A DNA stretch of 64,000 bases from Marsupella aquatica. Taxonomy: Eukaryota; Plantae; Marchantiophyta. The stretch is from the NCBI GenBank assembly GCA_973895155.1, contig OZ316895.1, positions 20,040,803 through 20,104,802 on the forward strand, written 5' to 3'. Under the pieces are notes generated by a model that made no database searches, was not told the origin of the DNA, and saw nothing but the letters and a program-made list of their open reading frames with translations. The translations under genes and the position numbers were made by a program. This document shows, piece after piece, positions 16,063 to 62,384 of this stretch (positions are counted from its first letter, which is position 1; each line of letters opens with the position of its first letter).

Positions 16063-16510
16063 ACTAGCTCAATACCCATGCGTTGCACAAAAGATGTCGT
16101 TAAAATAAAGATGTTGTGGTTGCACCCAAGATGCTGCTACAAAACAAACTGTTGTGGCGCCCAAGATGTTAAGAGAAAAAGATGAGTTTCTCGAGATGTC
16201 ATGATGTGAAAGATGCCATGAAGATAAAAGATATTGTTAAGAAAAAAAATCATTTTGCCAAGGATGTGGTGTCACCCAAGATGTTGTCAAGTAAATAGAT
16301 GTAGTGTCGCCAATGATGTTGTTATGCCAAAGATGTAATTAAGTACAAAATGGTCAATAAGTAAAACATGTCAAAGATGTTGTGAAGTAAAAGATGTAGT
16401 TAAGTACATCTTGGGTCCTATACCTGTGCGTTGCACAAAAGTTGTCAAGGTGAGAAAAGATTTGAAAATGAAAAATGATGTACATGAGAGAAAACATGTC
16501 GAGGTGAGAG
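16063..16510 (+). mobile_element. Helitron/Helentron-like non-autonomous end followed by an AAGATGT minisatellite (copy 1)
   Basis: ACTAGCTCAATACCCATGCGTTGCAC followed by many degenerate AAAGATGT(T/C)GT units; a related copy starts at 19733. Confidence 0.4.
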
Positions 16511-19500
16511 CATGTGTTGTTTTTTTTTTAGGTTTTTGAGAAATGAATATTTTCAATATCTTTCATTTATATTCAAAATTGTTTCAAAATTTTCCAATTT
16601 TCAAGAATTTTTTATATATGAATAATTTAATTATTTTTTAATTAAGTTTTTCATTGTGGCAGGTATGGAAGGCTAAAGGGAAGCTTGGGCAGGAACTTAT
16701 TTTAGAAGGGGTGTATGGATAGATCTGACAGTGTGGAAAATTTAATGTTTTGATCAATGGTCAAGATTGATTCTCATTGTTTTTAGTTGTAAATGGAAGG
16801 GATCTGGATTATAGTGATACAAGGTAAAGGGAAGTCTCCTTGATAGTCATGCATTGCTAGAGTCCCTCCCTATTTCCTTTGTACTATTAGATTCCTTTTT
16901 GCTTGGAAATAGTGCACTCCATTTCATTCACACTACATTACTTTTTCTTTTTTTCCTTCTCTTTGGTTAGGTTTTTTCATGTTTCTCATTTTTGGGGCAC
17001 TGTAAATTTGAGTGATGACCACAGTCACTACTACAAGACGCAACCTTTTATTATAGCTTTTTGATTGATTATTGGGAATGATCTGTAAGCATATCATGTC
17101 CTGGACTAACCAAACACTTTTTGAATGTTACTTAATATGGTGCATGGGGGTTTAGGGTCACGGACTTTAGAGGCTGTGCATTAGAAATCCCTCATCTTTA
17201 TTTTCCCCTTGAGAAAACGTCTTGTTTTTGGAGCCATAATAGTTCAGACAGGATCTTGTCCAAACCTTTGAACTCAGATAGGATTCGGAAATGTTCATTG
17301 TATGAAAGTCAAGCTCTTCCACTAAAAATCTAAATTAGTATTAGTACTGTATGTTTTCACAGATCCTATGTGAGCTTAGAAATCTCACAAAAGCAAAAGG
17401 TTTGGGATGCTGATCCCATACAAGGAACGAGAAGCTCAGATAGACACAAAGGTTTGACAAGGTGCTTGAATGGACTCACAGAACCCTTATAGACACAATC
17501 CAAACCTCAAATTATACCCTCAAGGTACTAGTGCTGTTTACTTTATTTTGCTATAGTATGCACAAGCATAGTTTGATAGTGCCTCTCCAAAGTCTTCCTT
17601 ATACGAGTCAGGACACCCATCCATATGCTGAGAAGGGTTCCCCATACCCGTAGCTCTTATAGAAGAAGCTGTGGTGAAACAGAATCCGACTGTTATCCTT
17701 AGATCTAGGTAGATCCAAGGGTCATAGTTTATCTAAAGAGACTAAGTAAGGAACATACTTAGCATTTTCTCCTTCTCGCAAAGTGGCACTCCCCTGGCAA
17801 AAAACGAAAACTTTACTCTCTACTGATCCCGAAAAAGAAAAGTGTGATCATAGAAATTATTCAGATGTATATGGCTAAATTTGGCTGGATTTTTGCACCC
17901 ATAAATTACGTAGATGTAAGGGCCAAAAATTTACCTAGGAAAACTAGATGAGGGAGATGAACTCTCACAGGTCTCATCATGTCACACATTTCATTTTAGG
18001 GGTCCATCAAACAAATTCCTCCCCACAAGGTGGCATTCAGGTGACATTCTTTTAGTGAAAAGCAAAAAAACTTCCCTTCCAGTGATACCCAAAAAGTGAC
18101 ACGCAAAAAGCAAAAGTGAGATCCTGAAAATTATTTAGACCAAATTTTGTCAACGTCGTCACCAGCCCGGTCCGCTTGCCACTTGAAGGCATCCAGGTAT
18201 AATTATTACCACACCTTTAAGGTTTGAATTACAGCACATCGTTCATGACTGTCAGAGGCCGAGAACTGTGCGATCTGATCGGAACGTCAGATTGGATCTC
18301 ACTATCGACGGCCCGCATGACATCTACTGTGGACCGTTCACCAAGTTTTCCCGTACTTTGTTTTACTATTTTCTCCTTGTTTTGACTGAGGGCCCACGGT
18401 AATTGTTTGAGCGTATATCACGTGTTAAAATTTGCATCGTTGATGGCTGCCCCAGTTCCTGGAAAGGCCTCAGAGATCAGCACGAGGGTAATTTAAAGGT
18501 TTCTACTTTTTAGGCAAGAGGCTCATGTGTGAGTAAAAACGATTCTAAAAATATTGGATCTGTAATTTTCCCACATCAATTAATGGCGTTAGCTTTCTCT
18601 AGATTGAAGATAACAGTTAGATTCTAGCTAATGGGTCCGCTGCTAGTACGACGAGGACCTAATTTTACAATGTCAACTCTAGTAACACTTGTATCTAAAA
18701 ATGATACAATTTTTGGGGAATGAAAATAATTATAAGAGTAATTTTAGCATTTTGATGTGAACACTAATTATAAGGCACGTATGCATTATTTTCAAGAATA
18801 ACACACCTGACTGAGGAATAACACATCTGACTGCGAACGGTCCACACTAGATGTCAGGAGAATAATGTTTGGCCTTGTGTTATTTCCTATACTTAATAAT
18901 AATTTTTAAAAAAATGCACAGGTCATGCAAAACCCTGGGTGGCACTGCGGCAGAAGCATACTGCTGGATATCCTGCCCACACCAGAGCCAACTCAGCAGA
19001 TGGAGAGAGCTGGCCCTTATCATGTCCTCTCAAAGTGGAATTGACTGTGGGATGGACGAGAGGTTGTCCCTTCCCTTCCCCATGGACTCAGTAAAGTGAT
19101 TAGCGAGTTCAGACCCAAATACAAAAGTGACCAGTCACATTTGAATTCAAAGTTAGATTTCTGTCATTAAGCACTTTACTACTTTGACACCTTTGTGGAA
19201 CAAGTAATCAAGAAATCAAGTCCTGTTTTTGAAAGTGCCATTTGCTCAGTAGTGTAATGTTGTCTCAATGGAACAGCAAAGTGAAGGAGCAGATTGGGTT
19301 GTCTTTGTCTTGAAGCTACAACCGCAACCCAATTCAAAGCAAGCAAAATGGATCAGTGAGCTAGAAAGTATGAACAAAAACATTTGCATCACTCAGTTGC
19401 TCCCATGCTGTGGATTTGAGCCCTTAGTTTAAGAAAAAAATTGAGCAATCACAAACTTGTGAGTATTCAGAATGCATTTTCAAAACGCAACATGCTGTCT

Positions 19501-19732: not shown

Positions 19733-20000
19733 ACTAGCTCAATCAATACCTGTGCGCTGAACAAAGATGTCGATGTGTAAGAGATATTGTCCATGGAAAA
19801 GAGATATCATTTGTGGAAAAGACAACATTATGCAAAAGATGTCATTGTGTAAAAAATGTCATTCATGGAAAACATATTCTTGTGTAAATATGTCATGCGC
19901 AAAAGATGTCATTGTTGCGCAAAGATGTCGTCGTGTTAGGATGTCATGATTGCACAAAAAATGTCATTGTGCAAAAGATGTTTATGGAGAAAATGTTATA
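19733..20000 (+). mobile_element. Second copy of the ACTAG..TGCG.. end plus AAGATGTCAT minisatellite
   Basis: ACTAGCTCAATCAATACCTGTGCGCTG followed by repeated (GC)AAAAGATGTCATTGT units. Confidence 0.4.
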
Positions 20001-21369: not shown

Positions 21370-21870
21370 AGAAAGGGTTTCCAATGAACCTGAGATTGAC
21401 AAATTTTGTCAAGTTCCAAATGAGTTTTTGAATTTCTTTGCCTTTCCAATGAGTGTGAGTATAAGAAATATTGATCATGAGTCCATGAATTCTTTTAGCT
21501 TTAATTCCAACATTGAGTCCGACATTGACAAATTTTACGTCAGATTTTGTCACGATACTAAAGAGATCATGAGGTTTTCAATCTCTCTAGCTTTCTAATG
21601 TGTGACATTGAGATTATTCGTCAAGAATTAGAGAGATCATGAGTATCTGAATTTCTCTAGCTTTCCAATGTACCTAACATTGATAGATTTTGTCAAGTAC
21701 TAAGGAGATTATGAGTTTTTAATTTTACTTTAGCTTTCCAATGAGTGTGACATTGATAGATTTTATCAAGACAATACTAAAGAGGTCACGAGTTTCTAAA
21801 TCTTGATCTTGAGTTTTCCAATGAATCAAACATTGACAGATTTTATCAAGTACTAAGGAGATTGATTATT
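21370..21870. repeat. Degenerate tandem repeat of about 70 bp (roughly 6-7 copies)
   Basis: Recurring GACATTGA(T/C)AGATTTT(G/A)TCAAG..CTAAGGAGAT(C/T)ATGAGTTT..TAGCTTTCCAATG. Confidence 0.7.
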
Positions 21871-22976: not shown

Positions 22977-25697
22977 TCAGATTTTTTCAGTCGATTAGGA
23001 ACTCCATAGAACTTGCTTCAAGCAAAGCGAACAGCGGATGATTTCCTCTTCAAAGCGGAGCTATTGGAAGAAGATCTGCTGGCCCTGCCATTAGTGAAGA
23101 AACCATGCTGAAGCATTGATCCTCCAGATGAACAATCTGACCTTGGGGAAAGTCCACACTCCCCACACTTTCCTCCAACGTTCCTCCAATTCGTCTGTGG
23201 AGCCCTCTATGTCCACCTTTTGTCGAGTTTGGAGAATCTAGATCCGACACAGAGGAAGGAGTGGCCCAAACCTTGTTGGGATGGGACCAGCCATAGTTTT
23301 TCTTGTGCCAATCCCACTTCCAACTCGAGCACTGGTGCAGAGCCAGACCACCTTGAATCCTGCACCTCGAGATAGAGTCGTGAAACTGGCTAAATTCGTA
23401 ATGCCGATTTGTCTGGTGCTACGAATTTGGTTGTTCAGTTGTTCTTTCTCGATCCATTGGTTGTTGTCACCACTTAAGTCAGTGATTGACTTAATTCTCC
23501 TGTTGGCAAGGTATCTTCGGAGTTTGACCTGTTGCTCCATGAGATATCCTTATCTCTGAGATATAGTAGAGTTTGCTCAATGCTAAGGTGCAGCGGGAGT
23601 TGACTCCCTTCAAACTGGAAATTGAGCCTAAACACTACACCCGATGTTTATGGCAAAAAATAATGAATTATGAATTTGACAGTCCATAATTTTTCTATCC
23701 CTGACCTTATAAAATTATCCATCAAATTTTGTGAAAGTCCAGGAAGGTCGGAAGATTAGAAAGAAGCCTAACTGGAGTCCGATGTATAGGCTGAGTAGTA
23801 ATAGGTATGATAGGAGTTTTAGGAGCAGGTGCACTATTTTTGAACCTAGTGGTTAATCTGGTCCTCCTGGCCAATTACTGATTTTTTTTCTCTGTTTGCT
23901 CGGGCTTTCGGGCTCGTGGCCTTTGGGCTCCTTCTCGGGGCGGCCGCTGTTGCCCCGGGTGTTGGTCTGGGTTCCATCCCCTCCTACTTTTAAAATTAAA
24001 AAAATGGTCCATCATATTTGATATTTGAATCTTTGAGACCCCCATTTTCCAAGTGGGCTTCCTTTTCGTGAAGCTGCCCGGTCCCCGACTGCCCGCACCA
24101 TGAAGGGGTGGCGGTTCTGACAGAATCACACAACTGTAGCAGTTTGTACCGGTATCGGTCTTTGTTCCCAGATCACGGTGAATACGGTAGACTACGGCAC
24201 TGTGCCAGCAGTAACTTCTCTGGATACGGATTACGGAAGGAAACGGAACGAGACTGTTCCCATCTTTTTGTCATTCTCAAGGGGCGGGCAGTACCGTAAC
24301 GGGTCTGGCGTAAATACTTCGAACGGCTTGGTGGTGAAACATTTAAATTGTTACTGTTCACCAGTTCTGTATACATTATCCAATGTACTTATTACGTACC
24401 AAATTTCTAGCACAGAAGTCAATGAACGAAGGCTAAATAGGGTGTACTATCCTGCTTCGTGCAGTAAAATGGCGAAATATTAATTACTTTTATTCCAGGA
24501 AACAGCATACTGCCAAAATAGTAGAAAGCATTACGTGCTCGAATGGACCACCCAGATGAACCTTGAAACCTGGATAGACCAGGTTACTGTTGACGAGAAT
24601 GCGTGGAGCTTTTTGAAAGAAAATTTACTATATGAGTACACAATGAGTCCCCTAGTCTATGATTGTAAACTAATATGATACTCAAATAGAATATTTTATT
24701 GAATAATCTAGGATTTCTGCTGTCCATCTGGGATTTGCTTGTCCATCCAGGTCATCTTGTCAAACATTTAGGTCCATGGGGGCTTCAGTTTTCTAGAATA
24801 TCATTCTCCTTATTTACTTATTCTATTATGAAACGATTGTGCATAGGGAAGGATTTGGGAGGGATTATGCACAAACTATAGGGATTTGATGATATAATGC
24901 ATAAACTATAGGGAGGGATTTGCACAATCGTTTCATAATGCACAATCGTTTCATAATCCTTTCAGTTAGAGTACCTTTCACAGCTGAGCAACCTTTTCAC
25001 ATCTTAATGCGCCTCACTATATTCTCTATGTGATTTCAGGGCATTCATTGAGAATGTATTGTCAAGATTTGGGTGTCATTATGAAAATTCTCCTATACTT
25101 TTACAAAAAACAGGACAAACAAACAAAAACTTAAGCCTTTAAGTGTACTAAGGTGCTCTTACCTGAGCACTATGGCCCACAATAGCCTCTCATATATACC
25201 TAGCCCCTCAGGTAGTTTTCTATTTTTATTTCTATGGATGGTTTGGAGCCATAACCCTATGCCCCAGCCTGGCCAAGAGGTTATGACATTTTGACCCCCT
25301 CGCTAACCCACCCGGAGGTTATATAATTTCAAACACAAAGTTTTAATAAAAATAGAGCAAAGCTACACTCAGGGCTGTGCTTGTGAACCCATGACTACCC
25401 AAAGGGCATGCCTTCACTCCCTAGGGGATTATATCCCACAAGCCTAGCCTGACTACCTGTTCTTTGATCATAAATATAGGTGACTACAAAAAACCATGCA
25501 CTACTTTTTCTAAATTATTGACATTCATTTATGATTTGTCCCTGTTTCTTGTACCCCAAAGTTAAGTGAAGCAGGCCTACTTATGGTCAAGAGGCTTCAC
25601 TCTAGACCTAGACCATAAAAGAAATAGGTTTATATCCCAAATTACTACATTTAACTCTCACTAAGTGCGGGCTCTTGGGAAGACAGATCCGGCATGC

Positions 25698-25873
25698 TGT
25701 CGTGACATATAGTATCGTAGTCATAGTGTATCAAAAACATACAAGTTACCGGCAAGGCATATGTGCAAGCTGCTAGCAACCAACATGCATAGAAAAAGTC
25801 CAATCACATTCACAAGTGCCAAGAAAAAGCAAATGAAGTGGTATGTACGTAGTGGAGGTGTAAACCTCTGTAT
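25698..25873 (-). repeat. Repeat A, terminal copy (176 bp)
   Basis: Matches 26235-26410 with 4 substitutions by eye count. Confidence 0.95.
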
Positions 25874-26232
25874 ATAAAAGGCGTAAGAAAAACAATTGTA
25901 TTGAAATCAAATCAAAAACCGGCAGGATGCCAAGATCGGCCGGGAGCATCTAACGAATCACTGTGTGAATCCCGTGTACGGAACCGACGAGCACTGTCTG
26001 AGCTCTGTCAACAGCGATTCAAGAAGAACTGAAAAACCCACAAAGAAATACATGCCCTAAGCAAGCAAAGTCCTGGCATCACACTAACAAGCACATTTGC
26101 TTCAAGAATGGCCCAGACTTGCTACAAGAACATGTCGCTAACTCAGGTAGTACACTAGCCCTAACTACATACCTAGCGGGCAGGCAAGGGACATGCCGAT
26201 GTGCATAAGAGACACTGTCCCTCGGCATGACA
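25874..26232 (-). repeat. Repeat B, 3' copy (359 bp)
   Basis: Matches 35158-35516 with about 11 substitutions by eye count. Confidence 0.95.
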
Positions 26233-26234
26233 GC

Positions 26235-26410
26235 TATCGTGACATATAGTATCGTAGCCATAGTGTATCAAAAACATACAAGTCACCGGCAAGGCATATG
26301 TGCAAGCTGCTAGCAACCAAAATGCATAGAAAAAGTCCAATCACATTCACAAGTGCCAAGAAAAAGCAAATGAAGTGGTATGTACGTAGTGGAGGTGTAA
26401 ACCTCTGTAT
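26235..26410 (-). repeat. Repeat A, inner copy (176 bp)
   Basis: Direct repeat of 25698-25873, separated from B by GC at 26233-34. Confidence 0.95.
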
Positions 26411-26418
26411 CCCCCCCC
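26411..26418 (-). other. Putative polypurine tract (G8) for plus-strand priming
   Basis: C8 on the + strand directly abuts the inner A repeat, about 30 nt after the integrase stop codon. Confidence 0.6.
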
Positions 26419-26450
26419 AGACCACAGCCACAAGGAGGGCTGAAGAAAAT

Positions 26451-27770
26451 TCAGGTAGCACGTGGAGCACAAGAAGGGCAAAACCATAACCCTTCTGGCA
26501 CCTGGGTAAGTTCAGGCCAAAGGCAGAAAAGATGGTACCCTCCATTGCAATTGTCACACAGCAGCATCTGGTCAGCATCATCAATTCGCAAACACACCTT
26601 GCAAGGGTAGTCCACAGGTGGAATCCAAGTAGAAGTCACAATGGTGGGATCTAGGTTAGGCAGATGACAAGGGGCGCAATTCTTGGCATTGTCAGCAATT
26701 GTGCGCCCATCTGCCCCTTGTAACTCTAGCACTCCAGACGGTCGAATAGCTTTAACCCTGAGAATAGTTCGACTGGTAGAGGTGTCCAGGGTGTCGTTAG
26801 CTTGCCGCTGCAAGTACACAAAATCTCCCACATCAAACTTCCTGACCTTGGGCTGAAAAGTGCCCCCTCGTGTGTGTGCATAACGCAGTGTGTCCCTGTG
26901 CTGTGCAATGGCCAAATTCTCCATGGCCATGGGCATAACCCTCCTGAATAGGGCAGCCCTCTCAGAGATCACATCAGACCAAGTCACAGCTGAATCCAAG
27001 TCCACCACCTGAAGCATGTGAGCAGCAATAGCAGAAGGTGGAACTGGGTGACGACCAAACAACAAGAAGTAGGGAGAAAAGTTAGACAGTGATGCATGTC
27101 TGGACATCCTATACCCCATGGCAATGTAGGGTAAGGCCAGGTCCCAATCCTCCTTGTTTTTGGTGAGGCAGATCTTTCGGAGACCCTTCTTGCATGTCTA
27201 AACCATGCGCTCTGCCAAGCCATCTGCCTGTGGGTGATCTCGTGATGTCCGGCGATGATCAATGAGGGCCTGATCAAGTAGCTCCTGGAACTCTCCTCTA
27301 AACTCTGAGCCCTGGTCAGTGAGACATTCTGCACAAGCTCCAAAGCGGCTGAGAACTTGTTGTAGGAATGTCTGGCTGGTGCTACGGGAGGTCTTATCCG
27401 GCAATGCCACAAGTTCTATCCACTTGGAGAAATGCTCTATCATGATCATGATGTAGAGATTACCCTGAGATGTGAGGGGTAATTCTCCAGCCAAATCACA
27501 TGACCAGCGATAAAACATGCCCTGAATAGGGAGTGGATGAAGTGTGGGTTGCCGAGATATGAAAGAAGTCCTCACCCTATCACACTGTTCACACCGGGCA
27601 ATAACATCTCGAACCTGGCCATGCATGCCTCTCCAATGATAATGAGGGACCAAGAGGCTGTAAGTCCTCTTAACGCCAAAATGACCAAGCTCAGAATGTA
27701 CCTTACGGATAAGGCCAACCCTCTCATGAATGGGTGGAACCACCACTTCCCTGTCTGGCAAGCAGCGCAC
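26451..27770 (-). pseudogene. Integrase (HHCC Zn finger, DDE core, SH3-like region, C-terminal PHD finger) with one in-frame TAG at 27198-27200
   Basis: HSELGH..CEQC; SCDLAG, TDQGSEF and AERMV provide D,D,E; reading continues in frame ERMV*TCKKGLRK. PHD C4HC3: CKVC..LLCDNC..YHLFC..WFCPSC (26469-26603). Confidence 0.93.
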
Positions 27771-27785
27771 GAGATGATCTCCCTT

Positions 27786-29330
27786 TCACAAGTAGCGCTT
27801 GGACCTTTGCTGAATTTGGTCTCTCTGGGCAGTAGTAACATGTGTGGGTAACTCCCCATGCTGCAGAAATCTCAGAGTGTCGCTGTCCTCCCATATGTCC
27901 ACCACAGGTTGGTCAACAACATAGCATGGCAGCAAAGCAAGATAGGTCGATGCATGAAATGTAGGCAAGATGGAAACCTGGTCAAAATCTTGCCGTGCAT
28001 CTGAGGAATCATCAGAGGTAATCAAAGGGCTGCGGGACATAGTGTCAGCATTCTGATGTGTCACACCAGGCCTATGAGTTACCTCAAAATCATACTCCTG
28101 GAGTATGAGCGCCCAACGAGCAAGCTTGCCAGTAAGCTTGTCGTTGGTCATCAACCACTTCAAGGGCTGGTGGTCGGTGTAGAGAACAAACCTGGTCCCA
28201 TAGAGGTAGGGCCTATAATGTATGACAGCCCACACAACAGCAAGGCATTCACCCTCATAAGAAGAATAATGACTCTCTGCCTGATTGTTGCTCCTGGATG
28301 CATAGGCAATGACGTACTCTTTACCTTCCTCATCATGCTGGCCCAAAATGGCACCAATCCCAAGGGCACTCCAATCTGTGTGTAGCACAAAGACCTTGTT
28401 GAAATCAGGTCTTCTCAGCACCGGGTATTCTGAGAGCTTCTCCTTCAAAGTGGCAAATGCTGCCTCAGCATCTGTACTCCATGTCCAAGTCACATTCTTT
28501 TTCAACAAAGCATACAATGGGTGTGCAATGGTACTGAAATCTTTGATGTAGATCCAGTAGTAATTGCACAACCCAATAAAACTCCTCAAAGTGCGAACAT
28601 CGATAGGAGTGGGCATTTCCAAGATGGATACCACCTTGGCCCAGTGAGCCATGGTTCCATTTGGAAGAATGCGGTGCCCAAGGTATACTACTGATCTGAC
28701 AGCAAATTCACACTTCTTGGGGTGTATCTTTAGGTTCACCTTCTTAAGCCTCATGAATAGCTCCTCAAGGTCAAGTAGATGCTGGTCAAATCCTTTGCTG
28801 TGGACCAACACATCATCAATGTAGCGTTTCAGAAACTCAGCACCTTGAAGAACCTGGTCCATGACTCTTTGAAAGAATATGGGCGCATTCTTCAAGCCAA
28901 ATGGCATCACCAACCACTCCCATAGTTGGTTACTACCATGGAAAGCTATTTTCTTGCGGTCCTTTGCAAGCAGCAAAATCTGGTTAAAGCCTTGCCTTAG
29001 ATCCACAAGAGTGAAGATGTCTGAGTCTCCAATGCTGTCAAATAGCTCCTCTGGCCGTGGCATGGGGTACCTGTCCTGGGGTGTGACCAGGTTCAGTGGC
29101 CTGTAGTCCCCACACATGCGCTTCTCTGTCCACAATCCACTGGAATCCTTCTTTGCTGGCATCACTGTAGCTGCTGCAAAATCTGATGTAGATGGCTGAA
29201 TAAGACCAGCTTCATAGAGCTCTTGGCATCTCTCATCCACTAGCTGTCACTCATGCTTACTCAAACGGTGTCTCCGCCTGAAGATAGGTGTTTCATCAGC
29301 CAACTCAATGGAGAACTGCATAGTCTTGCA
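27786..29330 (-). pseudogene. Reverse transcriptase plus RNase H of the gypsy pol, with in-frame TGA codons at 29247 and 27786
   Basis: RMCGDYRPLN, DLRQGFNQI, MPFGLKNAP, YIDD; RNase H motifs TDWS..GAIL, YEGECLAVVWA, TDHQPL, NADTMSR. Both stops lie in conserved in-frame context (HE*QLVDE, RYL*KGDHL). Confidence 0.95.
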
Positions 29331-29784
29331 CTTACCCAAGTCCTTCATAGAGAAAGCAAACACATTCTCATGCTTGAGGAGCAAATTCAGCAGCTGGTCC
29401 TTCTGTCTTTTACTCAGGTGGTTGCCCATGATGAATGTGTAGTTGGCAACACTAGGAATAGGACCTGATGTACTCGTGCTTGAAGAGCCAGAAGTGCCAG
29501 CCTCTCCACTGTCCAAGCTACTAGCATGCTGCTGATAAGGTGATGAGGCCTCTCCAAGGCCTGCTGTATCTGTTGCTCTGGTCTGATCCACACCATGAAA
29601 CTCAGAAATAATGTCAGCCACATTACAAGGGACCTCCTCCCCCCTAACACTTGGACTGAAGTGGTGAGTGTTGGACAGAGGTAAGTGCACCTGGTCTGGA
29701 TGCCATGTAGCAGCACCATGGAGTGGTAGGGCTGGCACTCCTGATGCTGGATGAATGTACATCTGAAAAAGGATGCAAGTGACC

Positions 29785-30725
29785 AGAAGCCAAGTGAGAG
29801 CATTAAGATCCATTACCTTGCCAAGTAAAGCAGTCCTGGCTAGCCTGGTGATTTTGGTGTGACCTGTAGTACCGGGTTGGAAGCCCATAGCCCGTTCTCT
29901 CTCCTCAGGACTAGGTTCATCCCATGTACCGATAGAATGTCGATAAACCAGGCCAGAACCATCACCCTGAAAAGCATGTGCACCTGGAAAGGACACAAAA
30001 GTAGGCCAAGCAGCACGGGGCTGTCCAATGGTATTAGCTGGATACCAAGGTGCTGGCTCTTGCCGTGTAACCGGTTGGCAAGAACTGTCAGGATCCAAAA
30101 TCTGGTCCACTGTGAGGTTAGTGTCCCTAGATGTGTGGTGAAGAGCTAACTCCAACAAGGAAGGTGGTGCAATGTTAGTCCAAAAGTTACGAAGACGATG
30201 TGCATAAGAACCACAGTGCATTGCATCAATGAGAAGGGGTGGTCCCAAGTAGTGTTGGACCACACTGAAATCCTCTTTGACCTGTGGACGCTGGTCAAAC
30301 TGAGATGGAGTATTCTCAATGATATAACCAACAGCAGGATAAAGGGATTGAGCCCAGGTGAGAATCTGAACCAATGCTGTGAAAAGGCCAGAACGAGAAT
30401 CATGCAGTCCAGCACCGTGACCAGCAGCTGAAAACCCTTGGCATTCCCAACCAGCTATGATCAAATCAAGGGAGCCAAGAAGGGTTAAGTGCCAGTGCTG
30501 GACAAGCTGGATGTCTGGAGGGAAGAAAGAAAATGCAGACTTCCATGCACTATGTGGAAACTGCTGGGGAAATCGCTCGGAAAATTCCAGCAGACGGGAT
30601 TCAGCCACTTGCCTTGCACTTGGATCAATGTCCACGTAGATGTACTGCTTCACCACCATGCCAGACTGTAGGAGAGCTTCCAGGCCTGTAGAAATGCCAC
30701 CAAAAAGCTCAATCAATGTAAGGCC
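29785..30725 (-). CDS. DNMT3-like C5 cytosine DNA methyltransferase domain embedded in pol between protease and RT
   Basis: Ordered motifs I (ELFGGISTG), II (YVDID), III (DIQ), IV (DLIIAGWECQGFS), VI (IIENT), VIII (AHRLRNFWTN), IX (EERERAMGF) and X (RLARTALLGK). No stop or frameshift within the domain. Confidence 0.92.
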
Positions 30726-31079
30726 ATCTAAAAGAGGAGTCCATTTAACTGGTGCGCTCAAGATTGGGGCTATTGGCTGTCCATTGTGCTGCCCAAGGTC
30801 TTCAAACTTGCGCAATGCAGCCACCAAAGGTCCATGGGCTGCTTGGAGCTGTTGTACCACCTCTGGTTGATGATCCACGTTGCTGGAAAGTGCTGCTATA
30901 CGTGCAGCAGCATGTGCAGCAGCCACCTCATCGTCATCCTCCTCAATCCAATCTTGCAATGGGTGGTTGACATAGGTAGCTGTGTGCACTGCTTTCAACA
31001 CACAGTGGTGAGCCATAGGTATATGGGCACCATGCAAATCAAGTGGAATGTAGCCCAAGTGTGAGCCATCAGTATGCCA

Positions 31080-31430
31080 ATCAACTCTGTAGTATGCATG
31101 CTCATGCCAGTTGTCAATGGTAAAACCTGGTGGGAACAAAGCCTCCTGGCCAATGAGCACATCATACGTAGTGGCATTGGTAACCAAACATCTGACTGGG
31201 AAATGCAGTTCCTGATCTGTACCTCCATTAAAAGTGAGAGTGAGTAAAGTAGAACTCTCACCCAGCACATCCTCCACAGTGCCACTAGCAGCCCGAATGT
31301 GCCACTTGGATTGCTGTAAATGATCAGTCAACAGTCCCATCTTCTTGGCAAACTGAATGCCCAATATCACTGGTTGAGCACCTGTGTCTAGCATGACCAC
31401 CTGAGGAGTGTGACCCTCCAACTTGACCAC
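31080..31430 (-). CDS. Retropepsin-like aspartic protease domain (part of ORF 31985-29247)
   Basis: VMLDTGAQPVIL active site, IRAASG flap region and YDVLIGQEAL. Confidence 0.85.
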
Positions 31431-32039
31431 TGAATTCCTGTTGTCAACAATGGCAATGGTGGTGGAAACTGAAGTCCTGTCAATAGGCACCACTCTCGGC
31501 AAATGATGAGGTACCTTGTGAAGGGAGTTAGTGTCCACGGTCTTTCCACTCAACAACATAGCCAGGAAAGATGGAGCAGCATGACCAGAATCAAGTGTAG
31601 CTCTGGTCACACAATCAGCAGCAATCGGTATTGGGGCAGCCAAACCAGTGGAAACATGTAAAGGAGAAGAAAAAGGTCCAGTATGTACATGAGATTGGAC
31701 CTCCAAAACCGGTGTCACAGGGGTTGATGAAGAATGCAGTGAGCCCTCTAGCGCTCTAATGATAGCTCTAGCATCCAGCTGTAAATCATGGCAACTGAAA
31801 AGTGGAGTTGTAAGAATCCTTTGTGCCATACCGGAGGTGAAATGCTCAAGCAGCTCAGGAGAAACAACTCCCTGTGAAATGTTAGCAGCACCTGGTGGTG
31901 GAATGGATGTAGCTGCAGCTCCCTCCCCCCTCGCCAACAAGGTGCGCTCTTCAGCAAGTGTGAGTGGCTGAAAAGATTGGGGCATGACAGCCCGAGCGCC
32001 CCTGGCTCTAGTCAGAGGACCGGCAGCAAGACCATCAGC

Positions 32040-33581
32040 CTATACAATGCGGCGTGTGGGAGCAATACGGGAGGCAGCACTGGCCTGCTGGTAAGCAAAA
32101 CAGGAAGGGCAGAATGAATCTGAAAATTCTGCTGTAAGGCCAGGCTGTGGAGCAGAGGACAGCACACACTCACCCATATGAGCATCAAATGGTAAGCCAT
32201 AGAAAGAGCGGGGTAGAGGTGCTGAACTGTCAGCGGTGCCTGGGCCAGGGATGGGTTGCACGTGACCAGCCGGTTGAGAAGGACCAGCAGAGGCAGTGGA
32301 CTTGCCTTTGATGTTGGCAAGTTGGGCACGTAAGGACTCAACCTCATGAGTCAGAGACTGGAGTTGAGTTGCCTGTGCGTTATGAGCCTCCTTCTGAGCT
32401 GGTTGCTTCTGTGGCTGCTTGGGCAATTTGTTAGCACCGGGTGCTTTGCCACTGGAAGGAGGAGCAATGGATGTAGTAGGAGCCCTCCTAGCTGGGGGGG
32501 GAGTGGAAGCAGGAGCAGGATGAGGGGCCTGCTGTCGTAGCCGCTTCCGCTCTGGGAATTTGGCAAAACAAACTGCCTCCAAGTGACCCACTTTCCCGCA
32601 AAAATCACAAGACAGGTCCTCAGCAACAATATCACACTCATTAGCCTTATGATTGGGGTTACCACAGTAGTTGCAAGATGGCAGCATGAAAGCAGCATGG
32701 GCTGGCTTGGTCTTGGAACCATACTGTGGCACACGAGAAGGAGTGGCCAGTGTAGGGGTAGCAGCCTGGTACCTGGATTGCGGTGGACGCGCAATATTGG
32801 CCTCATAATGTGCATGGGCCAACTCAAGTTTCTCAGCAGTGTCATAGACATTGAGCAGGGTGTAGCTGTCTCCAAACTCTGAGAATACTTGCTGCAACAC
32901 TTGCGAATGGAGAGCTGGTGTGCCCTCCAATGCGCGAAGATAGCGATGAGCAGCCTCCAGGTCAGTGATGCTCTGGGTGTCCTCCTTCAGCTTGAGAAGC
33001 CGGCGATACATCATCTTCAAGGTTTCATCGCGCTGCCTCACAAAGGTGGCCAACTGCATGATTGTGTCAGCACTCTTGATTGGGAATTCCAATTCAAGAA
33101 CCTGGAAAAACTCAGCCACTGGATCAGCAAAGGCAGGGGAATCAATGGTGGGAGAAATGCCTGATGTAGCCTGTGCCAAGATAGTGGGAGTAACGGGCGC
33201 AGTGGTAGGAACTGGAGTAGGAGGGGAAGTGGCAGGAGCAGCAGCATGGGCTGCAATGGCATTCTGTAAGGCCAATTGTGAGGCTGCCGCAATTGCACTG
33301 GCATAGGTAGGGTTAGGCAACTGTGTGACAGCAAGCAGCCGTTGAGAATGCTGCTCATACACATCCAAAGCCTCATGGTGCACATACCTGGCTAGCTGCT
33401 TAAATGCAAAAGCATTTGTGAAATTGCTGCCGTACTTCAACTCCAATGCGTAAACGATAGTGTAGAAAGTGGATTTGAACTCACGTAAAGAGACAGTGCC
33501 TGGCCGCCCGCTGAAGCGCTCAATGCGGCCAGATGAGTGGTTGGCATCCATGCTGTATGTCGGTGAAGCAGGAACAACCAC
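32040..33581 (-). CDS. Gag with two CCHC zinc knuckles, in frame with pol across a single TAG; may originally have started at ATG 33817 (frameshift near 33600)
   Basis: IERFSG capsid-like start; CNYCGNPNHKANEC and CDFCGKVGHLEAVC knuckles; Pro/Ala-rich linker. After the TAG, 18 sense codons lead in frame to ATG 31985. Confidence 0.85.
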   Translation of the reverse strand: MVVPASPTYSMDANHSSGRIERFSGRPGTVSLREFKSTFYTIVYALELKYGSNFTNAFAFKQLARYVHHEALDVYEQHSQRLLAVTQLPNPTYASAIAAASQLALQNAIAAHAAAPATSPPTPVPTTAPVTPTILAQATSGISPTIDSPAFADPVAEFFQVLELEFPIKSADTIMQLATFVRQRDETLKMMYRRLLKLKEDTQSITDLEAAHRYLRALEGTPALHSQVLQQVFSEFGDSYTLLNVYDTAEKLELAHAHYEANIARPPQSRYQAATPTLATPSRVPQYGSKTKPAHAAFMLPSCNYCGNPNHKANECDIVAEDLSCDFCGKVGHLEAVCFAKFPERKRLRQQAPHPAPASTPPPARRAPTTSIAPPSSGKAPGANKLPKQPQKQPAQKEAHNAQATQLQSLTHEVESLRAQLANIKGKSTASAGPSQPAGHVQPIPGPGTADSSAPLPRSFYGLPFDAHMGECVLSSAPQPGLTAEFSDSFCPSCFAYQQASAASRIAPTRRIV

Positions 33582-34254
33582 GGATGCAGAAGGGGTAAAA
33601 ATGGCAATGAAGTGATAGCAGGCTTCGGGGTAGTGGTGAAGCGACCACCAAATGTAGCAGAAGGATTGCGTGGTGTGGGTGCTGCTGTTGTCTGCTGACG
33701 TTGCTGAAATTTCCGAGACTCCAATGAAATTGGCACCAATGGTCGTGGATCACTCCGTAAATGGTACCTGGGTGTCGGTGGTGATGTGCTGCTACCTCCT
33801 GGCTCGTCTGCTGACATGCTGTGTGGCAGTACCCGATGTACTCAGGTAATGTACAAAATGTATAAACATGTTGAAGAACCGTCAACCTCAAAAATCCGTC
33901 AGAGAAAAAGGACCCTTAAAAACGTGAAGACATTGGGTGCCCACTTAATTAAGTGTATAAACACGGGGCCCCGTTAAGTGTATACGTCGGGCCCCGATGT
34001 GGACCCGGGAACTAGCAAGCTCGACGGAAAAAAGGCCGGGCGCGCGTCGGCAGTGAAATCGTCCTCACGGGAACCGGCCGAGTGTGTAAACACACCCAGG
34101 GCACGGCACCCTATGCACAGCCCAAGGAGGCCCTATGCAGGTCGTTGTGAGGCGGAAGGAAAGACGACGGCCGAAAAGAAAAGAGAGGCGGATTACGAGG
34201 CGGAAAGGAGGCGAGGCGGGAGGCGAGGCAAAAGAAACCTGGCCAAACCGGGCC

Positions 34255-34660
34255 CTCTTAATGGCATGAGCCCTCCATAGGGCTTCGTGCCCCACCTTAT
34301 GTGCTCCCGAAAAGGGGCTACGAACATACTCCCCCCTCCTCTCCTGCAATGCAATTTGGGCCTCGTGCCCTGGCAGAAGACTCCCGTGAGAGGAGTCAAG
34401 TGTACTCCCCCCTCTTCAATGCTGACAGTGGGCTCCGTGCCCTGCAGGGGGACTCCTGAAGAAGGGAGTCGTGTGTGAACTCCCCTCCCCCTCCTTTTAA
34501 TTGCTGCTTAGGGCCTCGTGCCCTCTCCTGCGCTCCTGCCTTGGTTTCGTCTCCCCCTGCTTTAATGCTGCTTCGTGCCCTGCAGGAGACTCCCCCTGCT
34601 TTAATGTGTACTCCCCTCCCCTCCTCTTAATGCGCCATAGGGCCTCGTGCCCTCCATCCT
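34255..34660. repeat. Degenerate tandem repeats in the retroelement 5' leader
   Basis: About 6 copies of GGG(C/T)(C/T)CGTGCCC interspersed with CTCCCCCTC..TTAAT. Confidence 0.65.
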
Positions 34661-35145
34661 CTCTCGCTTATGCTCGGCCACGGCAGGAAGCAAAACGAAG
34701 GAATAGCGAGGCGACGAGGCAAAAAAAAGAGGAGTAAGAAAGGCAGAAAGAAAAGGGGTGTGCGGCCCTATGCCGTTGGGAAGTAGCGCGCAGTGGCCTA
34801 GGCAGTCCGGTGGTGGTCGCGCGGCAGCCGTGGCCGGGAAATGGCCATAAAAGCTAACGAAAAAGGGGCCCCAAACTCCCAAAGGGTTGCGAGTGAGGGC
34901 GCAGCGGCCTGTGCAATCGGCAGCAAGTCGTCGATGTAGGTCACAAAGAAGGTTGCGGCCGGAAAAAAAACCCGGGCCCCTTGTTATTTGTATACACTTA
35001 AGTATACAGTATACACATAACACCACAATAAACCCATAACTTTTAACTCGTCACTCCGATGTCCGTCAAAGAAATTGCAATGGCTTCACCAGAAAGTGTC
35101 GAAATCGTCACAAACAATCTTCTTCCCCTCACCACTATCTCGACG

Positions 35146-35157
35146 AGTTCTTCTTGA
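35146..35157 (-). promoter_or_regulatory. Putative self-priming PBS (Tf1-like), complementary to the predicted transcript 5' end at 35314
   Basis: 35146-35159 AGTTCTTCTTGAAT is a perfect 14-bp inverted repeat of 35301-35314 ATTCAAGAAGAACT and abuts the end of repeat B. No TGG-starting tRNA PBS at this position. Confidence 0.7.
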
Positions 35158-35516
35158 ATAAAAGGCGTAAGAGAAACAATTGTATTGAAATCGAATCGAA
35201 AACCGGCAGGATGCCAAGATCGGCCGGGAGCATCTAACGAATCACTGTGTGAATCCCGTGTATGGAACCGACGAGCACTGTCTGAGCTCTGTCAACAGCG
35301 ATTCAAGAAGAACTGAAAAAACCACAAAGAAAGACATGCCCTAAGCAAGCAAAGTCCTGGCGTCACACTAACAAGCACATTTGCTTCAAGAACGGCCCAG
35401 ACTTGCTACAAGAACATGTCGCTAACTCAGGTAGTACACTAGCCCTAACTACATACCTAGTGGGCAGGCGAGGGACATGCCGATGTGCATAAGAGGCACT
35501 GTCCCTCGGCATGACA
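35158..35516 (-). repeat. Repeat B, 5' terminal copy (359 bp)
   Basis: Direct repeat of 25874-26232; not followed by repeat A. Confidence 0.95.
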
Positions 35517-37748
35517 ATGCACTAAACCAGGTGGTGCGTTCCTTGATAAGTTAGCACACACCCCCTAAAACGTGCACTTATTGATATGGGCTGCTCTATC
35601 AGTGAGTAGCCCCTTACCTCATATCCCTGCCCTCATTCTTTACTCTACTAAGAATGGGTAATCCTGCATTTATTAGTAAAATGCTATTTCATGGCTTTGT
35701 GCTTTTACCCATAAGAGCAGACATACACTTATTGAGGGTAAGCGCTTATGAAGTTGTCTTTTAGGAAAATGATTGAAGCCCTGTGTGCGCTTACAACATA
35801 CGCTTAAAAAGCACTTATCCCGTGTTAGAAAATAGAGTAGGAGAGGATGCCCTGGGCTAATCAAGGGTAAGCGCTTATGGAGTCTGAGCTTAGACAGAGC
35901 CCACTATAGTAAGATAACCCCCTTTGGACCGTGGTTTACATTAATCTAACCCATTCGATGGGTTGGGGTACCTTTCACAACCTGAGGTATGGGATGCTTT
36001 CTGTTCCCTCCACTCCGTTCCTGGTTTAGACAGAGCTCGAGATTGAAACTCCGTGAAATGAGAGCTTGGACAATTCGGGATGCATCAAATTCAAGCAGCG
36101 AATCGTTGAAATTGGAGAGAGAGAGCATGGGAAATTGGAATGGAGATGGAGGCGACAGTTTATGGTTGGGAGGCGCCAGATAGACAGACGGAAACATCAG
36201 TTCGACTACGGAGCTGGGGAATTTTGGTTGTGAGTGATTCTAATGTGCGGCCCGATTGAAGTTTGGAGGTCCTTGAAGAAAGGGTTTCACATACAGGTAC
36301 TAAAATTGGATCATCGTCGAGAATTGCTTGTAGTTGGGAGTGAGCTAGAGGTGCTCCTTTCTTCCCCTTGTGCACCATCATTCTTGAGACCCACAACTGG
36401 ATGACTAGATAGACCCACAGCTGAATGAATAAGTAGTCGAAATTCTGGATGCAGTTTGCAACCACTCGCTCGTCAGCATTGCCGCCCAAGCTTCGTAGTG
36501 TCATTTCTTACTGACCTTGGGTCTGCTGCTGAGCTGAGCTGGTCTTGTTCTCTGAGCTGGTCTTGTTCTCATTGAACTACTTTCATCAGCTGATTTACGG
36601 GCCTCACAAGCCAAAGCCAAATCTATGAATGAATATTTTTCAAGACTTTTATCGCTAGTTGGCTTTCCATCCCCTCGCTTCAATATGAGCACTTCAAGCG
36701 TATGGGCAGAAGATTCTATTTTTCTGCAATGGGTGAGATAGGAAGGACCAATATCTCGAGACCTACCAGATACCATGGGTCGCCCACCCGTGTGGACACT
36801 AAGCCCTCTGGTAGACTGGGGTATGAAGCCCTGAAGTACCCTGTAGTCGGAATTCTCGCTGACGGACTACGATCGTGTCAACAGAAGCTCGAGACAGCTA
36901 TCCCTTGCTTGAACAGACGAAACTGAATGTTTAAGGTTCAATCAAATTCTATGTAAATTGGGTGGTTTTAAAAGTCGTTGACCTTTCGAAAAGTGAGCTT
37001 CTTTGGTGGAATTTTAGTTCCCGAGACAACCGCCCTGGGTAAGAGGCCGAAGTCCAAGATAATCTCTTACTGTACGCACAATCAAACCTAATGATCAGAC
37101 AGGTAGAATGTCCTTCAATCTCGAACACTAGTGGGACCAAAGAATTACTTAGCGCTGTGAACTCTAACTTGTCCTCGTTCTTGAACATGCTGGATAGTGG
37201 GACCACAAACCCTCCTTCTGACTCTAAAAGCGCATAGCTCTGAATTGGGCCAATCTCGCTCTTCATCACCAGTGAGTTATTAATGTTCGGTGAAGTACAG
37301 CGTAAAGTGAAGCGCGGAAGAAATGCTCATCTGTACTTTCGCAAAAGAAGATGGGTTACTAGAGTATCCTTTAGATTTGGTCAGGTTTCAACCAAAGCAA
37401 AGATCTTGCCGTTCTCTCAAAACAAGACTCCGCACGCGTTTAATTGATTTTGAATTTAAAGTACATGATTACGAAAAATCTGAAGGAAAGCTGGTGTACC
37501 AATATGTTTTCATCACCTCTTCAGTTTTTGCAGTTTTTGCAATTTTTGGTTTTGGTTTTGGTTTGGACTGTGTCAATTTTGCTCGAGGAGTACTGCATGG
37601 TTTGGTTGCGGTGAGACAGCAGATTGAGACTGATGCGGTGTAACTCCAACTTTTGTGCACATTGTCAGGACGGAATCGAATTCAGGTGTTGTGGCTCTTT
37701 TTGGTAGTTGGTACGGACCCTGTTCGCCGGATTTCTGAGCCCCTAGTC

Positions 37749-40700
37749 ATGAAGGAGCAATATGATTACCTATCCTTGGGGCAGGCAGTTCTGCGCAAAG
37801 GAGAGGAAGTTAACTTTTACGGTGCTGTTAGCGAGTACGAGCATCCGAAACCAACTCGTGGCTCAGGTGAGCTAAGTTTATTCGCTTTTTAATTTGAAGT
37901 AGTCCACATTGGATGGGTCTTCAGGTCTGTTTTGCGCTCTCATGCTCTTCATGTTTCTACATTGCTTAATATTCTTATTGCGACCCTGGTTTTCTTGCTT
38001 TAAACCCTAAAACCTTTAAACTTTTGATAGGCTTCTTGTCAACAGCTTAATGATTTCTGTTGCAACATAAGTCTAGGACTGTTCAGGGCTAGATGAGCTG
38101 AGAGAGTGTCGAGGTCAGTGTATGCATTATCAAGGCTTTGTTATGGCGCCACATCGAACTCGTGGACGCTTTGAGCTTATATTGACTAATTCATCGAAAC
38201 AATTCCCGACAGATGTGATCTGTACCATGAGTGTGGTGGACATGACCTACGACAATCCTGGCTTGAGGTTACTAATCTTTGCATCAGCAGCGAATTGCCC
38301 ACTAGTCAAGTCTATTGGTGATATAATTCGAGTCCATCGGGTTGAGGTGAGGCAGTCACGATGAACAGACTCTTTGCAATCTGATATGTTCCTAGAGCAG
38401 TGCTTTCGAACCCCTTTGTGTGAACAGAACGGCGTTTAATGCCGTGTAAAAACCTCAGTATATGCGTAGCTTAGCGGGATTGTTCTTCCTATATATCCCC
38501 CATCTATAGCCTTATGCGGTTTGCAACGAGATACCTCTGCCTAGCTCCTGAGGATTTACTGGACAGAGGCGTTAGTCATATTTTGCAAACGCAGGTTTTG
38601 TCTCTCTTCTAAAACTTGAGCAAGAAAGCTAGGTAGTCGTTCAGGGTGTCTTCGTCCATTGTCTGAAAAGGCAGAAGGCTCTTGCCCTGCATTCAGGAAG
38701 GACCTGTCTATCAGGCTGCCATCTTCCGGAAATGAGTGCCGGCCTTGCTGGATGCCGGTCAAGGATGTCTCTTGCTCTCTTTCTACTTGATAGCTAGTCT
38801 CTTGATTTGCCCTGTGGATTCCAATCCCATGGCCTATTTAGGTCTCTGTGGAATTTAAAATAATGAAATTGGTTCATTCATCCTTCCTGACGATGGAAGA
38901 AAAGATTTTACCGTTTTGTTAGTTCCGTCCGTCCAAGTCTACCCTGACTAGAGTTTGTCTCGTGTCAGAAGGAAGATGTCACCTGAGGTGTCTCCTTGTT
39001 AACGCATGGCTGAAACTAGAAATGAAGAACCACACATATATTGAATAGCGTCTTTGCTCAATTTCTGCTATATGTTCTTATTTAATTTGGGGAGATTTTT
39101 GACAGATGGGAGACTACAAGGGAGAGCCGCAGGCAATTGCTAAAATCAGCCGGAAGTCTTCCTACATCCTATTTCAGGGAAAGAATGGAAACGGTTATGA
39201 ACCCTACCAAAAAGCACATGGTACATTCTCGTTTGAGCCACATGATGAACAAAGAGTTGACGTCATGCGGAAGTGGATCGAATCTCATCCTCTGTACACG
39301 CGTGAGTTTACTTGACCCTACTGTACTTATTTGAATAGAAGAAAACTTCTCAGCTTCCTAGTTCTCAATCGAAATGATTCCCTTTAGCTTGTTGTAGCAC
39401 CAAGCATTCCACTGTTACGTATTAACAGAAGAGAAAGGTTTGATGACGGAACTAGGGTAATGAAACATATTCTGATTGGGCTTGTTTGGACCTTGGTCAA
39501 CTGATCGTTTTTCTTTGCACTTTTCAGGCGTAAGCGATTATTTAGTTCCTATAAGTGGAATTAAGGATTGCTCTTATTTTGATTTGTGCTGTAAGGTGCA
39601 AGATCTAGCTTTGACACCTGTTACTCCTTGAATGCTTAAATTTAAGTCAAATGTGAGAATTGAGAACGAGGCGGGATGAGTAATTGTGTGCCCAGACTAA
39701 ACAACCTTACACGCTCAGATATAATGTTGTCAGGATACCCAAGGAAGTAGAGTAACTCACCCTTCGCTGGAATCATCGCCAGATCCTTTATGTGGTGGAA
39801 AGAACACCAGAGCACTCCACCATAATCTACGTTTGGGATGGCACTGATGCAGTGCCGAGATTCATATCAATACTGTATGTTTGTTCTTAACTGGCTACTC
39901 ACATAATTCTTCGCTGCATTTTATTTTGAGCTTATGGGATAGAGTCTTACCAATCTTTGAGATACGCTGACCTCCTGCGCTACCTTTTGTTCAACTTGAC
40001 TTTGGCCCTCGTCACTCCTTACAATTTGTCTCGCTTGTATGTAGCAAACCAGAAACAGATGAAGATTTTGAATCGGAAGCAATTTGCACAAATGGTTATC
40101 CACAATCTCTCCTGCCCAGAGATGTACTTTGCGACCTCCCCCCATTGGGTACTGTGCTACCCATCATACAAGAGATCCAGTTGGACGATCTACCCGGACA
40201 ACTGCCCCAGTGTGGTGATTGGGTGAAGTTTCGGAATCTTGCATGTCGCAGTCGAGCAGGCATATCAGAAGCAGTATTTAGGCGTGAGAGCAAAATTAGC
40301 CTTCTCTCAAAAGACACTCAATTGGTTAAGAACTGTGAAAGGTACGCTCTTCCCTGCATCTAGTCTTGCTCTTGACAAAAGAATCAAGTTTAAGGATAGT
40401 TGGTAAGAGGAGCTTTATCAACCTCCAAGCCTTCAAAATCATAGTGCTTGCTTGACATTGTGGCTCTCCAGAATGCTCATGAAAGCCCACAGCCCTTGAC
40501 TTATGGTTGCAGTCTTTATGAAGTACGGATCCTTTCAGAGCAGGGCCGCCTTCCACAATCATCTCCGCAGCCTCCACAGTTATTGCAGTCATTGACAGGT
40601 AGGCCTTGAATATAGAGTGGGGAAATTGCTGCTAATATGACGATGCAGTAGAAGGTTCTGATCCTACTTTGTTCCCATTCCAGTGACAGACTATGAGCAT

Positions 40701-41482: not shown

Positions 41483-41879
41483 TAACAGACTCTTTCCAGT
41501 CAATATCCATTGCAATTTTAACCAGGTAATTGAACAGTCAGATATATATGGGAAGATCCCAGCGATGATGTCCTGCAATTTGCTCCCTTCTGTGTGTAAA
41601 GAGGTGACCCGGCTCTCACACGATTGTACATTAATGTAGCTTTTGGGACACCTAGTTGGTGTGTCAACCTTGAACTTTCGTGGAGAATGCAATGGCCATT
41701 CGGCCTACTTTGAAACCCTTCTGACCTGGCACGTTCATAACACTGTCAAAGCTCCTACTGCATTTTGACGACATTTCAAGCCCTTGTGGCGGTTTAGTCT
41801 TCTGGGGTTTTCCCTTGTTGTGCCCCCTTTAGTGGGTCTTCTGCCTTTGGGATCACGTTATTTTAGATGGGCGCCTCTT

Positions 41880-62150: not shown

Positions 62151-62384
62151 TCTCTGAAAAGGGCCTCTGAATCTAGCGCTACAAAAACTATGAGCACAAA
62201 TTCATTTAGTCAACAAAAATTGAGTCTGTGCATACTTTCAATTAAAAGACCAATCATGTACAAAAGTCTAAAATAGCAAACTACCTGATGCACTAGTGTT
62301 CCTCTTAGTCAAAATTTGGAATCCTCTAAAGCTTATGGAGGATATCGTAAACCCTAGTACCCTGGCCCAGGCCGTGCCCTTGGT

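Follow-up and report, generated by a model that had tools for sequence, protein, structure and literature searches.

The window (the whole stretch of 64,000 nucleotides of DNA analysed here) contains a retroelement of the Ty3/gypsy type on its minus strand, which encodes gag, a protease, a C5 DNA methylase, reverse transcriptase (RT), RNase H, a DDE integrase and a PHD finger. On the coding (minus) strand, the element begins with TGTCATG at position 35516 and ends with CACGACA at position 25698, and it is flanked by a 4-bp target site duplication (TSD). Two sequences, named X and Y, are each present twice, and a slash is used here to mark the joint at which X2 directly abuts Y2. The features are listed in the direction of the coding strand.

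35517..35520, minus strand: left copy of the 4-bp TSD, GCAT on the coding strand
25698..35516, minus strand: whole element, 9,819 bp, with the order X1-ORFs-Y1-GC-X2/Y2
35158..35516, minus strand: X1, 359 bp, starts with TG; 96.9% identity to X2
35301..35314, minus strand: predicted self-primer and putative RNA 5' end; exact 14-nt complement of the X end plus the PBS
35146..35157, minus strand: PBS-like site that immediately follows X1 and is complementary to the self-primer
32040..33581, minus strand: gag-like ORF with a CCHC zinc knuckle (E 0.004, below the Pfam cut-off); ends at an in-frame stop
29247..32039, minus strand: pol part 1, encoding an aspartyl protease and a C5 cytosine DNA methylase; terminated by an in-frame stop
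27786..29246, minus strand: pol part 2, encoding reverse transcriptase and RNase H; terminated by an in-frame stop
27198..27785, minus strand: pol part 3, encoding the H2C2 zinc finger and the DDE core of the integrase; terminated by an in-frame stop
26451..27197, minus strand: pol part 4, encoding the C-terminal region of the integrase and a PHD finger
26411..26418, minus strand: PPT (G8), directly before Y1
25874..26410, minus strand: putative RT-defined LTR, Y1-GC-X2, 537 bp, ends AT…AT
26235..26410, minus strand: Y1, 176 bp, starts with ATACA after the PPT; 97.7% identity to Y2
26226..26241, minus strand: internal att-like junction, composed of the Y end (CA, here TA), the spacer GC (26233-26234) and the X start (TG)
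25874..26232, minus strand: X2, second copy of X; 96.9% identity to X1
25873..25874, minus strand: X/Y joint (…TTTAT/ATACA…), putative join of two RT-made cDNA ends
25698..25873, minus strand: Y2, terminal copy of Y, ends with CACGACA; four differences from Y1 in 176 positions
25694..25697, minus strand: right copy of the 4-bp TSD, GCAT on the coding strand

The coding region consists of five consecutive in-frame pieces split by four stops, which show that the copy in the window is dead. The C5 DNA methylase was detected above the cut-off (PF00145, E 5.6e-6), and the best matches of the integrase among solved structures are the integrases of Ty3 and foamy virus. The usual spacing in canonical Ty3/gypsy integrases is DD(35)E. 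The gap between the second D and the E is 34 residues in the window (27201-27785), in all four loci that match the pattern (4/4) and in all but one of the 40 related long proteins scored; this DD34E spacing may be a signature of the clade and may relate to the chemistry of cutting an internal site. Pfam searches of the 26 reading frames of the element of at least about 100 amino acids gave no match to a tyrosine recombinase, and the 21 frames (at least 100 amino acids) outside the five pieces gave no Pfam match. No chromodomain was matched in the element, which has a C-terminal PHD finger instead. The nearest named protein, from the liverwort Calypogeia fissa, is 83% identical. This match and a POT1A-like exon elsewhere in the window (40662-41150) point to a plant host, probably a bryophyte. 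Polyproteins that combine methylase, RT, RNase H and integrase, in some cases with a PHD finger, are widespread (P0121-P0162), and named examples are found in Haematococcus, Monoraphidium and Chlamydomonas eustigma.

In the standard scheme for LTR elements, the repeat of the cDNA spans from the PPT to the PBS. The PPT adjoins Y1 and not X, and the PBS adjoins X1 and not Y, in the window, in the loose contig ends of its own family and in every intact relative. With the PPT at Y and the PBS at X, the LTR made by RT would therefore be Y-GC-X (537 bp), with the TG/CA pair lying inside it. X1 is predicted to be the site of the promoter, the transcription start site and R-U5. The sequence after X1 contains no recognised tRNA-type site; an exact 14-nt complement of it is present 155 nt upstream, inside X. 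For control stretches, the longest complements did not exceed 10 nt (control maxima of 7-10). Among 28 copies of X located at 5' ends, the one in the window included, 17 have an exact complement of at least 10 nt and six have none. The primer-PBS duplexes of the two families differ at two positions, on both sides, and the helix is present in both the MFE and the centroid folds; the fold of the leader as a whole is not more stable than those of shuffled sequences (z -0.48). In 12 of the 16 relatives examined, TATAA precedes the primer by 31-32 nt; the X of the window itself lacks a canonical TATA at the corresponding position. Repeated G-rich units of 50 nt are present in the 1.5-kb leader (34270-34660), and the contig depth of the leader stretch 34025-35047 is far below that of the rest of the element; this stretch may be subfamily-specific.

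Self-priming has been described for Tf1 and Tj1 (PMC4600332) and has been predicted for the plant element Tcn1 (PMC6317226). According to the accessible text of these papers, Tf1/sushi elements and Tcn1 resemble the window element at the sequence level in having a PBS that is complementary to the predicted 5' end of their own RNA. Unlike the window element, they have ordinary terminal LTRs and a chromodomain, and no methylase.

An earlier note on this DNA had described the two termini as being repeated head to head inside the element with a 2-bp GC spacer, and this arrangement can be read directly from positions 26226-26241, which are CATGACAGCTATCGTG (minus strand …CACGATA GC TGTCATG…). Position 26236 is an A here and a G in the terminal copy. 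As written, the 16-mer palindrome has two mismatched pairs, and restoring the G of the terminal copy leaves one, as the note had stated. We rejected the palindrome score as an argument for significance because on its own it lies within chance: among the 63,985 16-mers of the window, 296 contain two mismatched pairs or fewer, and 23 contain no more than one. For the 16-nt pattern with two mismatches allowed, 0.57 occurrences are expected by chance; the 20-nt junction motif has one match, and none was obtained in 100 shuffles. What exceeds chance is that the junction is identical to both termini as well as to the corresponding junction in another family. When the LTR of the window was compared with those of seven relatives, the sole strong local similarity in all of them (7/7) was found at positions 155-187 of 537, centred on the junction.

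The window's own family was analysed in four of 17 listed sequencing runs; the four come from two studies and two coded organisms, one of which may be the source of the window. Contigs with a single flank have a depth of 14-81 and element contigs of up to 1,200-4,200, which suggests that the family is high-copy, with the restriction that contig depth is not copy number. Among the variants listed for the four runs (40 of 46), none changes the spacer at 26233-26234. Heterogeneous flanks (agreement 0.42-0.5) begin exactly behind position 26232 in three runs (9, 10 and 15 contigs) and just before the end of Y in two runs (10 and 11 contigs). Among the loose ends listed (24 of 223), the PPT and the PBS are found as loose ends at the X/Y joint, and one variant of this joint, 1 nt shorter, is present in the family.

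For a wider comparison, the best 80 of 452 loci from a metagenome scan were kept, in which the RT-RNase H region is 62-79% identical. Mapping of X and Y in these 80 loci identified 27 with a right end of the form Y-spacer-X/Y, corresponding to 23 distinct insertions by flank, and 24 in which Y is followed by other DNA; the remaining loci are too short or truncated. The 23 insertions represent one related family plus that of the window, and not 23 independent lineages. A spacer that differs from copy to copy or is identical to the host flank had been named in the earlier note as evidence against a templated junction. The spacer is 2 nt long in 23/23 insertions, and it is identical to the flank in 3 of the 23. 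Its bases are GC (8), GT (5), AT (5), AC (3), AA (1) and TC (1), and nearly every variant can be derived from GC by C>T or G>A changes in CHG context. The expectation of a conserved core ACAGCTGT across copies was thus correct for its length and not for its bases, which have decayed by C>T and G>A changes in old copies and remain GC in 8/23.

These results bear on the possibility that X and Y together form an ordinary TG…CA LTR, and that the observed layout is the outcome of a rearrangement, a misassembly or an insertion in nested or tandem position, the spacer coming from the host as it does in IS3 circles. It is true that X2/Y2, taken by itself, resembles a TG…CA LTR, that the GC of the spacer equals the first two bases of the right TSD in the window copy, and that the spacer bases vary in relatives. 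However, the PPT precedes Y and the PBS follows X in every intact case, the layout is repeated in 23 insertions with single matching TSDs, each boundary is reproduced in contigs of four runs, and the spacer variants point to GC and seldom to the flank. Because a match between spacer and flank occurs in only 3 of 23 relatives, the match in the window is a coincidence. We consider an ordinary LTR to be a highly improbable explanation.

The X/Y joint behaves differently from the spacer. It is exact in 10 of the 23 insertions and altered in 13, versus none of 23 with a spacer altered in length (Fisher p 2e-5). When the copy's own X1 and Y1 were used as the control, the joint was altered in 4 of 13 copies (window included), and two of the 13 imprecise joints (L002 and L037) may be 1-nt differences inside X. 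The changes include the addition of 1 nt and the loss of AT, and only two of the 23 are large. In L011, about 148 bp of Y are missing at the joint, and the CA end and the TSD are kept. In L053 (11050-11846), the PBS and about 290 nt of leader lie between X2 and Y2, an arrangement that we regard as a fossil of an aberrant cDNA end. The constant length of the spacer argues that the junction is templated, and the ragged X/Y joint with its PBS remnants argues that this joint is made anew from RT ends. What is made anew in each cycle would thus be the X/Y joint at 25873/25874 and not the CA-GC-TG junction. The first 99 bp of X are partly duplicated in tandem at the 5' end of one insertion, represented by two loci with the same flanks (L028:3674-4063 and L074:2615-3004).

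Both ends were available for 21 distinct insertions, whose TSDs match at 4/4 positions in 11, at 3/4 in seven and at 2/4 or less in three; a perfect 5-bp TSD was found in none of the 21. The repeat-free form X-internal-Y was found with both ends in nine further distinct insertions. We rejected this form as proof of the integration of 1-LTR circles, since recombination or assembly collapse can yield the same form. Indeed, L034 (X-internal-Y) and L061 (full form) have both flanks in common, and the Y of L034 is a mosaic of the two Ys of L061, which shows that X-internal-Y can come from the full form at one site. A long-range repeat in L030 and repeats in L062, considered as X1/X2 pairs, were dropped, as they belong to other insertions.

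Textbook LTR elements and retroviruses integrate a linear cDNA by its ends. For the window element, the reading that we favour with some reservation is that integrase cuts the internal junction, the RT-made ends probably having been joined first as a 2-LTR circle. The RNA would start at the self-primer in X1, end in X2 and prime itself at the PBS, and the product would be a linear cDNA of the form (Y-GC-X)-internal-(Y-GC-X), with non-att ends AT…AT. The two cDNA ends would then be ligated, often imprecisely, giving the X/Y joint. At the upstream junction, integrase would nick each of the two strands behind its CA and thereby generate 2-nt 5' overhangs, the geometry that is described, in the accessible text of PMC11054761, for 3'-processed retroviral ends. 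The 2-nt spacer would be lost, and strand transfer at a stagger of 4 bp would yield host-X-internal-Y-GC-X/Y-host, the form seen as product, and the downstream junction would be left intact as the template for the next round. We infer this mechanism from integrated copies alone.

A closed 2-LTR circle contains two identical junctions, so that products of the form X/Y-GC-X-internal-Y would also be expected. None of the 26 distinct 5' ends (29 rows) is preceded by a Y end. The circle would thus need an added asymmetry, and a linear precursor would fit this result at least as well. The asymmetry might be provided by commitment of integrase to the upstream junction before joining, by cutting of a linear molecule followed by host repair, or by a joint that RT itself makes. 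The preference for the upstream junction could perhaps be explained if the upstream LTR is the first to become double-stranded and integrase binds it while the downstream LTR is still incomplete.

It is possible, though in our view rather unlikely, that no circle is involved, that the linear cDNA is cut by integrase at its upstream junction, that integrase holds and inserts both new ends, and that the host afterwards repairs the break between the free X end and the free Y start in the chromosome. The product and its imprecise X/Y joint would be the same, the 0/26 result would be explained more easily, and linear DNA is the established precursor in retroviruses, as stated in the accessible part of PMC11054761. 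On the other hand, each insertion would entail a chromosomal double-strand break, yet 10 of the 23 joints are exact and large changes are seen in only two. We give still less weight to an end-to-end template jump in which RT itself makes the X/Y joint, with Y-GC-X-internal-Y-GC-X-Y(-GC…) as the product and integrase then cutting its att sites. Exact and +1 nt joints are compatible with such a jump, synthesis in L053 ran through the PBS and the leader before the join, and the observed asymmetry could be built in. Neither tandem nor further-extended copies were found among the 80 loci, though, and the deletion on the Y side in L011 resembles end resection; both observations speak against the jump, which we regard as improbable. 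Common to the circle, to host repair after cutting and to the jump by RT is that the junction is likely a functional att pair. The proposal in the earlier note that it is a templated integrase substrate is borne out to the extent that the junction, which is family-wide, element-borne and not host-derived, is the best candidate for such a substrate.

The A at 26236 lies in this candidate substrate. The position reads G in 97.8-100% of the contig depth in 4/4 sequencing runs (2 studies; 14-26 contigs each), and the A is therefore private to the window copy. It is a common deamination-type change, which is the commonest type of decay. Among the relatives, CA has become TA before the spacer in 8/23 internal junctions versus 1/23 right termini (p 0.02). 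The mostly internal location of TA fits decay after insertion that is not passed on, and its scarcity at termini may reflect a block of integration; alternatively, old copies may simply be immobile. CA is invariant at integrating ends and is an established requirement. Progeny of the window copy would take the end of Y1 into both LTRs, integration should then be blocked by the TA end, and the prediction that such progeny would be non-integrating is plausible. The effect on autonomy is moot because the same copy contains four in-frame stops.

More distant relatives were sought by a scan of genome contigs, which gave 41 loci. Four of these (L082-L085) were examined as retroelements, and the other 37 are weak short matches on prokaryote contigs. 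L083 encodes an RT that is 44% identical, together with a methylase and a PHD finger. Its end consists of a G-rich tract or PPT, about 115 bp and then CACGACA GC TG; it is represented by one contig, which stops 2 nt beyond the spacer. In a quick tree, which comprised 83 rows and no named gypsy reference, L083 is the sister of a Monoraphidium protein with a support of 100. These data suggest that the junction may be older than land plants. No usable junction was found in L082, L084 or L085. All four loci are eukaryote-type retroelement contigs inside prokaryotic MAGs, probably as contamination, and L084 is an 11-kb contig with a terminal overlap of 91 bp. The viral contigs scanned contained no relative of the element; an exact motif match on one of them (L081) lies within an ORF, on a contig without a retroelement protein, and was treated as chance.

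The chances seem to us evenly balanced for the broader proposal that these elements form an old clade of green plants and green algae, marked by the methylase, the PHD finger and DD34E, in which integration is uncoupled from the cDNA ends, the normal route being a 2-LTR circle of which a DDE integrase nicks a heritable internal att palindrome on both strands.

A C5 DNA methylase inside a gypsy Pol has been reported for KnitGypsy-Dnmt3 of Klebsormidium nitens (de Mendoza et al. 2018, PMC5890265), and the repeats of that element are described as DIRS-like, A-coding-B-A-B, with gypsy-type domains (PMC5890265, Fig. 4c legend). Both properties, the methylase in Pol and the A-coding-B-A-B repeats with gypsy domains, are those of the window element. 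The accessible part of that account gives no termini, TSD, position of PPT or PBS, internal junction or mechanism, and the two elements are compared by description. The repeat layout is thus already in print once, unexplained in that text as far as it is accessible. A K. nitens retrotransposon protein (P0083), which is not known to come from KnitGypsy-Dnmt3, is 44% identical, and the quick tree has an unresolved backbone. The literature searched, with Repbase Reports and subscription papers lying outside the search, contained no account of an internal att site or of a mechanism in such elements, and no second paper that mentions KnitGypsy-Dnmt3.

With canonical Ty3/gypsy elements (Metaviridae) and retroviruses, the window element shares the gag-PR-RT-RH-IN order, a DDE integrase, TG…CA termini and a PPT, and its 4-bp TSD is within the canonical Ty3/gypsy range of 4-6 bp. 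Canonical Ty3/gypsy elements have two full terminal TG…CA LTRs bounded by PBS and PPT, whereas the TG/CA of the window element lies inside the RT-defined LTR, so that its integrated copy is, unlike theirs, a circular permutation. It also differs from them in its DD34E spacing, its PHD finger and the lack of a chromodomain match.

Split direct repeats (A1-ORFs-B1-A2-B2) with an internal copy of the joined ends are described for PAT, Ngaro and VIPER (PMC4157794). As far as the accessible text goes, these elements share the split repeats with the window element but have a tyrosine recombinase, in contrast to its DDE integrase, 4-bp TSD and lost 2-bp spacer. Two further systems were checked. Troyka, for which the accessible text of PMC12440569 gives CG…CG termini and a 3-bp TSD, was rejected in view of the TG…CA termini and the 4-bp TSD of the window element. 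Kuafuorterviruses gave no fit.

Abutted ends with a short spacer are a DDE substrate in IS3/IS30 elements as well, which is an analogy only. In IS3/IS30-type circles, the spacer is a piece of the donor flank, and the transposase newly forms the junction. The junction of the window element is inherited through RNA, and the element, which has RT and RNase H, is not DNA-only. The likening to an IS3-type junction in the earlier note did therefore not hold as a membership, because the junction is copied by reverse transcription as a part of the LTR.

Palindromic LTR-LTR junctions are reportedly cleaved by foamy virus integrase (PMC1180852), which speaks for the cut proposed here, and cleavage of 2-LTR circle junctions by foamy virus or HIV-1 integrase is the subject of three papers (PMC1180852, PMC1905944, PMC4372172). 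A circle-junction model had been put forward for SNV in 1984 and was rejected for retroviruses (PMC11054761), a point against the circle reading. In foamy virus and HIV-1 2-LTR circles, integrase would act on palindromic head-to-head LTR ends, as proposed for the window element. The foamy virus, HIV-1 and SNV junctions come from ligated cDNA ends, are predicted to give 4-nt overhangs, and represent a side route or a rejected one. In the window element, by contrast, the att pair would be templated inside the LTR, 2 bp apart and separate from the ligated ends, and would apparently serve the normal route.

The idea of integration through an internal palindromic junction dates from 1984 and was rejected; all that survives of it is a side activity, itself disputed, of the integrases of foamy virus and HIV. 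A naturally occurring, abundant family built around such a junction would offer a defined 16-bp substrate for testing circle-junction chemistry. If the proposed mechanism is true, a DDE element has converged on the split-repeat design of tyrosine-recombinase retrotransposons. Moreover, LTR finders that require two terminal LTRs, such as the approach described in the accessible text of PMC6317226, would miss or mis-annotate this high-copy clade of bryophytes and algae.

Outside the element, degenerate tandem arrays with units of about 40-80 nt are located at 21370-21863, 19761-19981 with 16072-16446, 47060-47343 and 41869-42029. Inverted repeat pairs, which are possible ends of MITEs or DNA transposons, are located at 4238-5191, 51315-51665, 18318-18856 and 57595-63350. 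Finally, a plus-strand frame at 40662-41150 encodes a POT1A-like OB fold (E 8.6e-24) and is probably an exon of a telomere-protein gene of the host.
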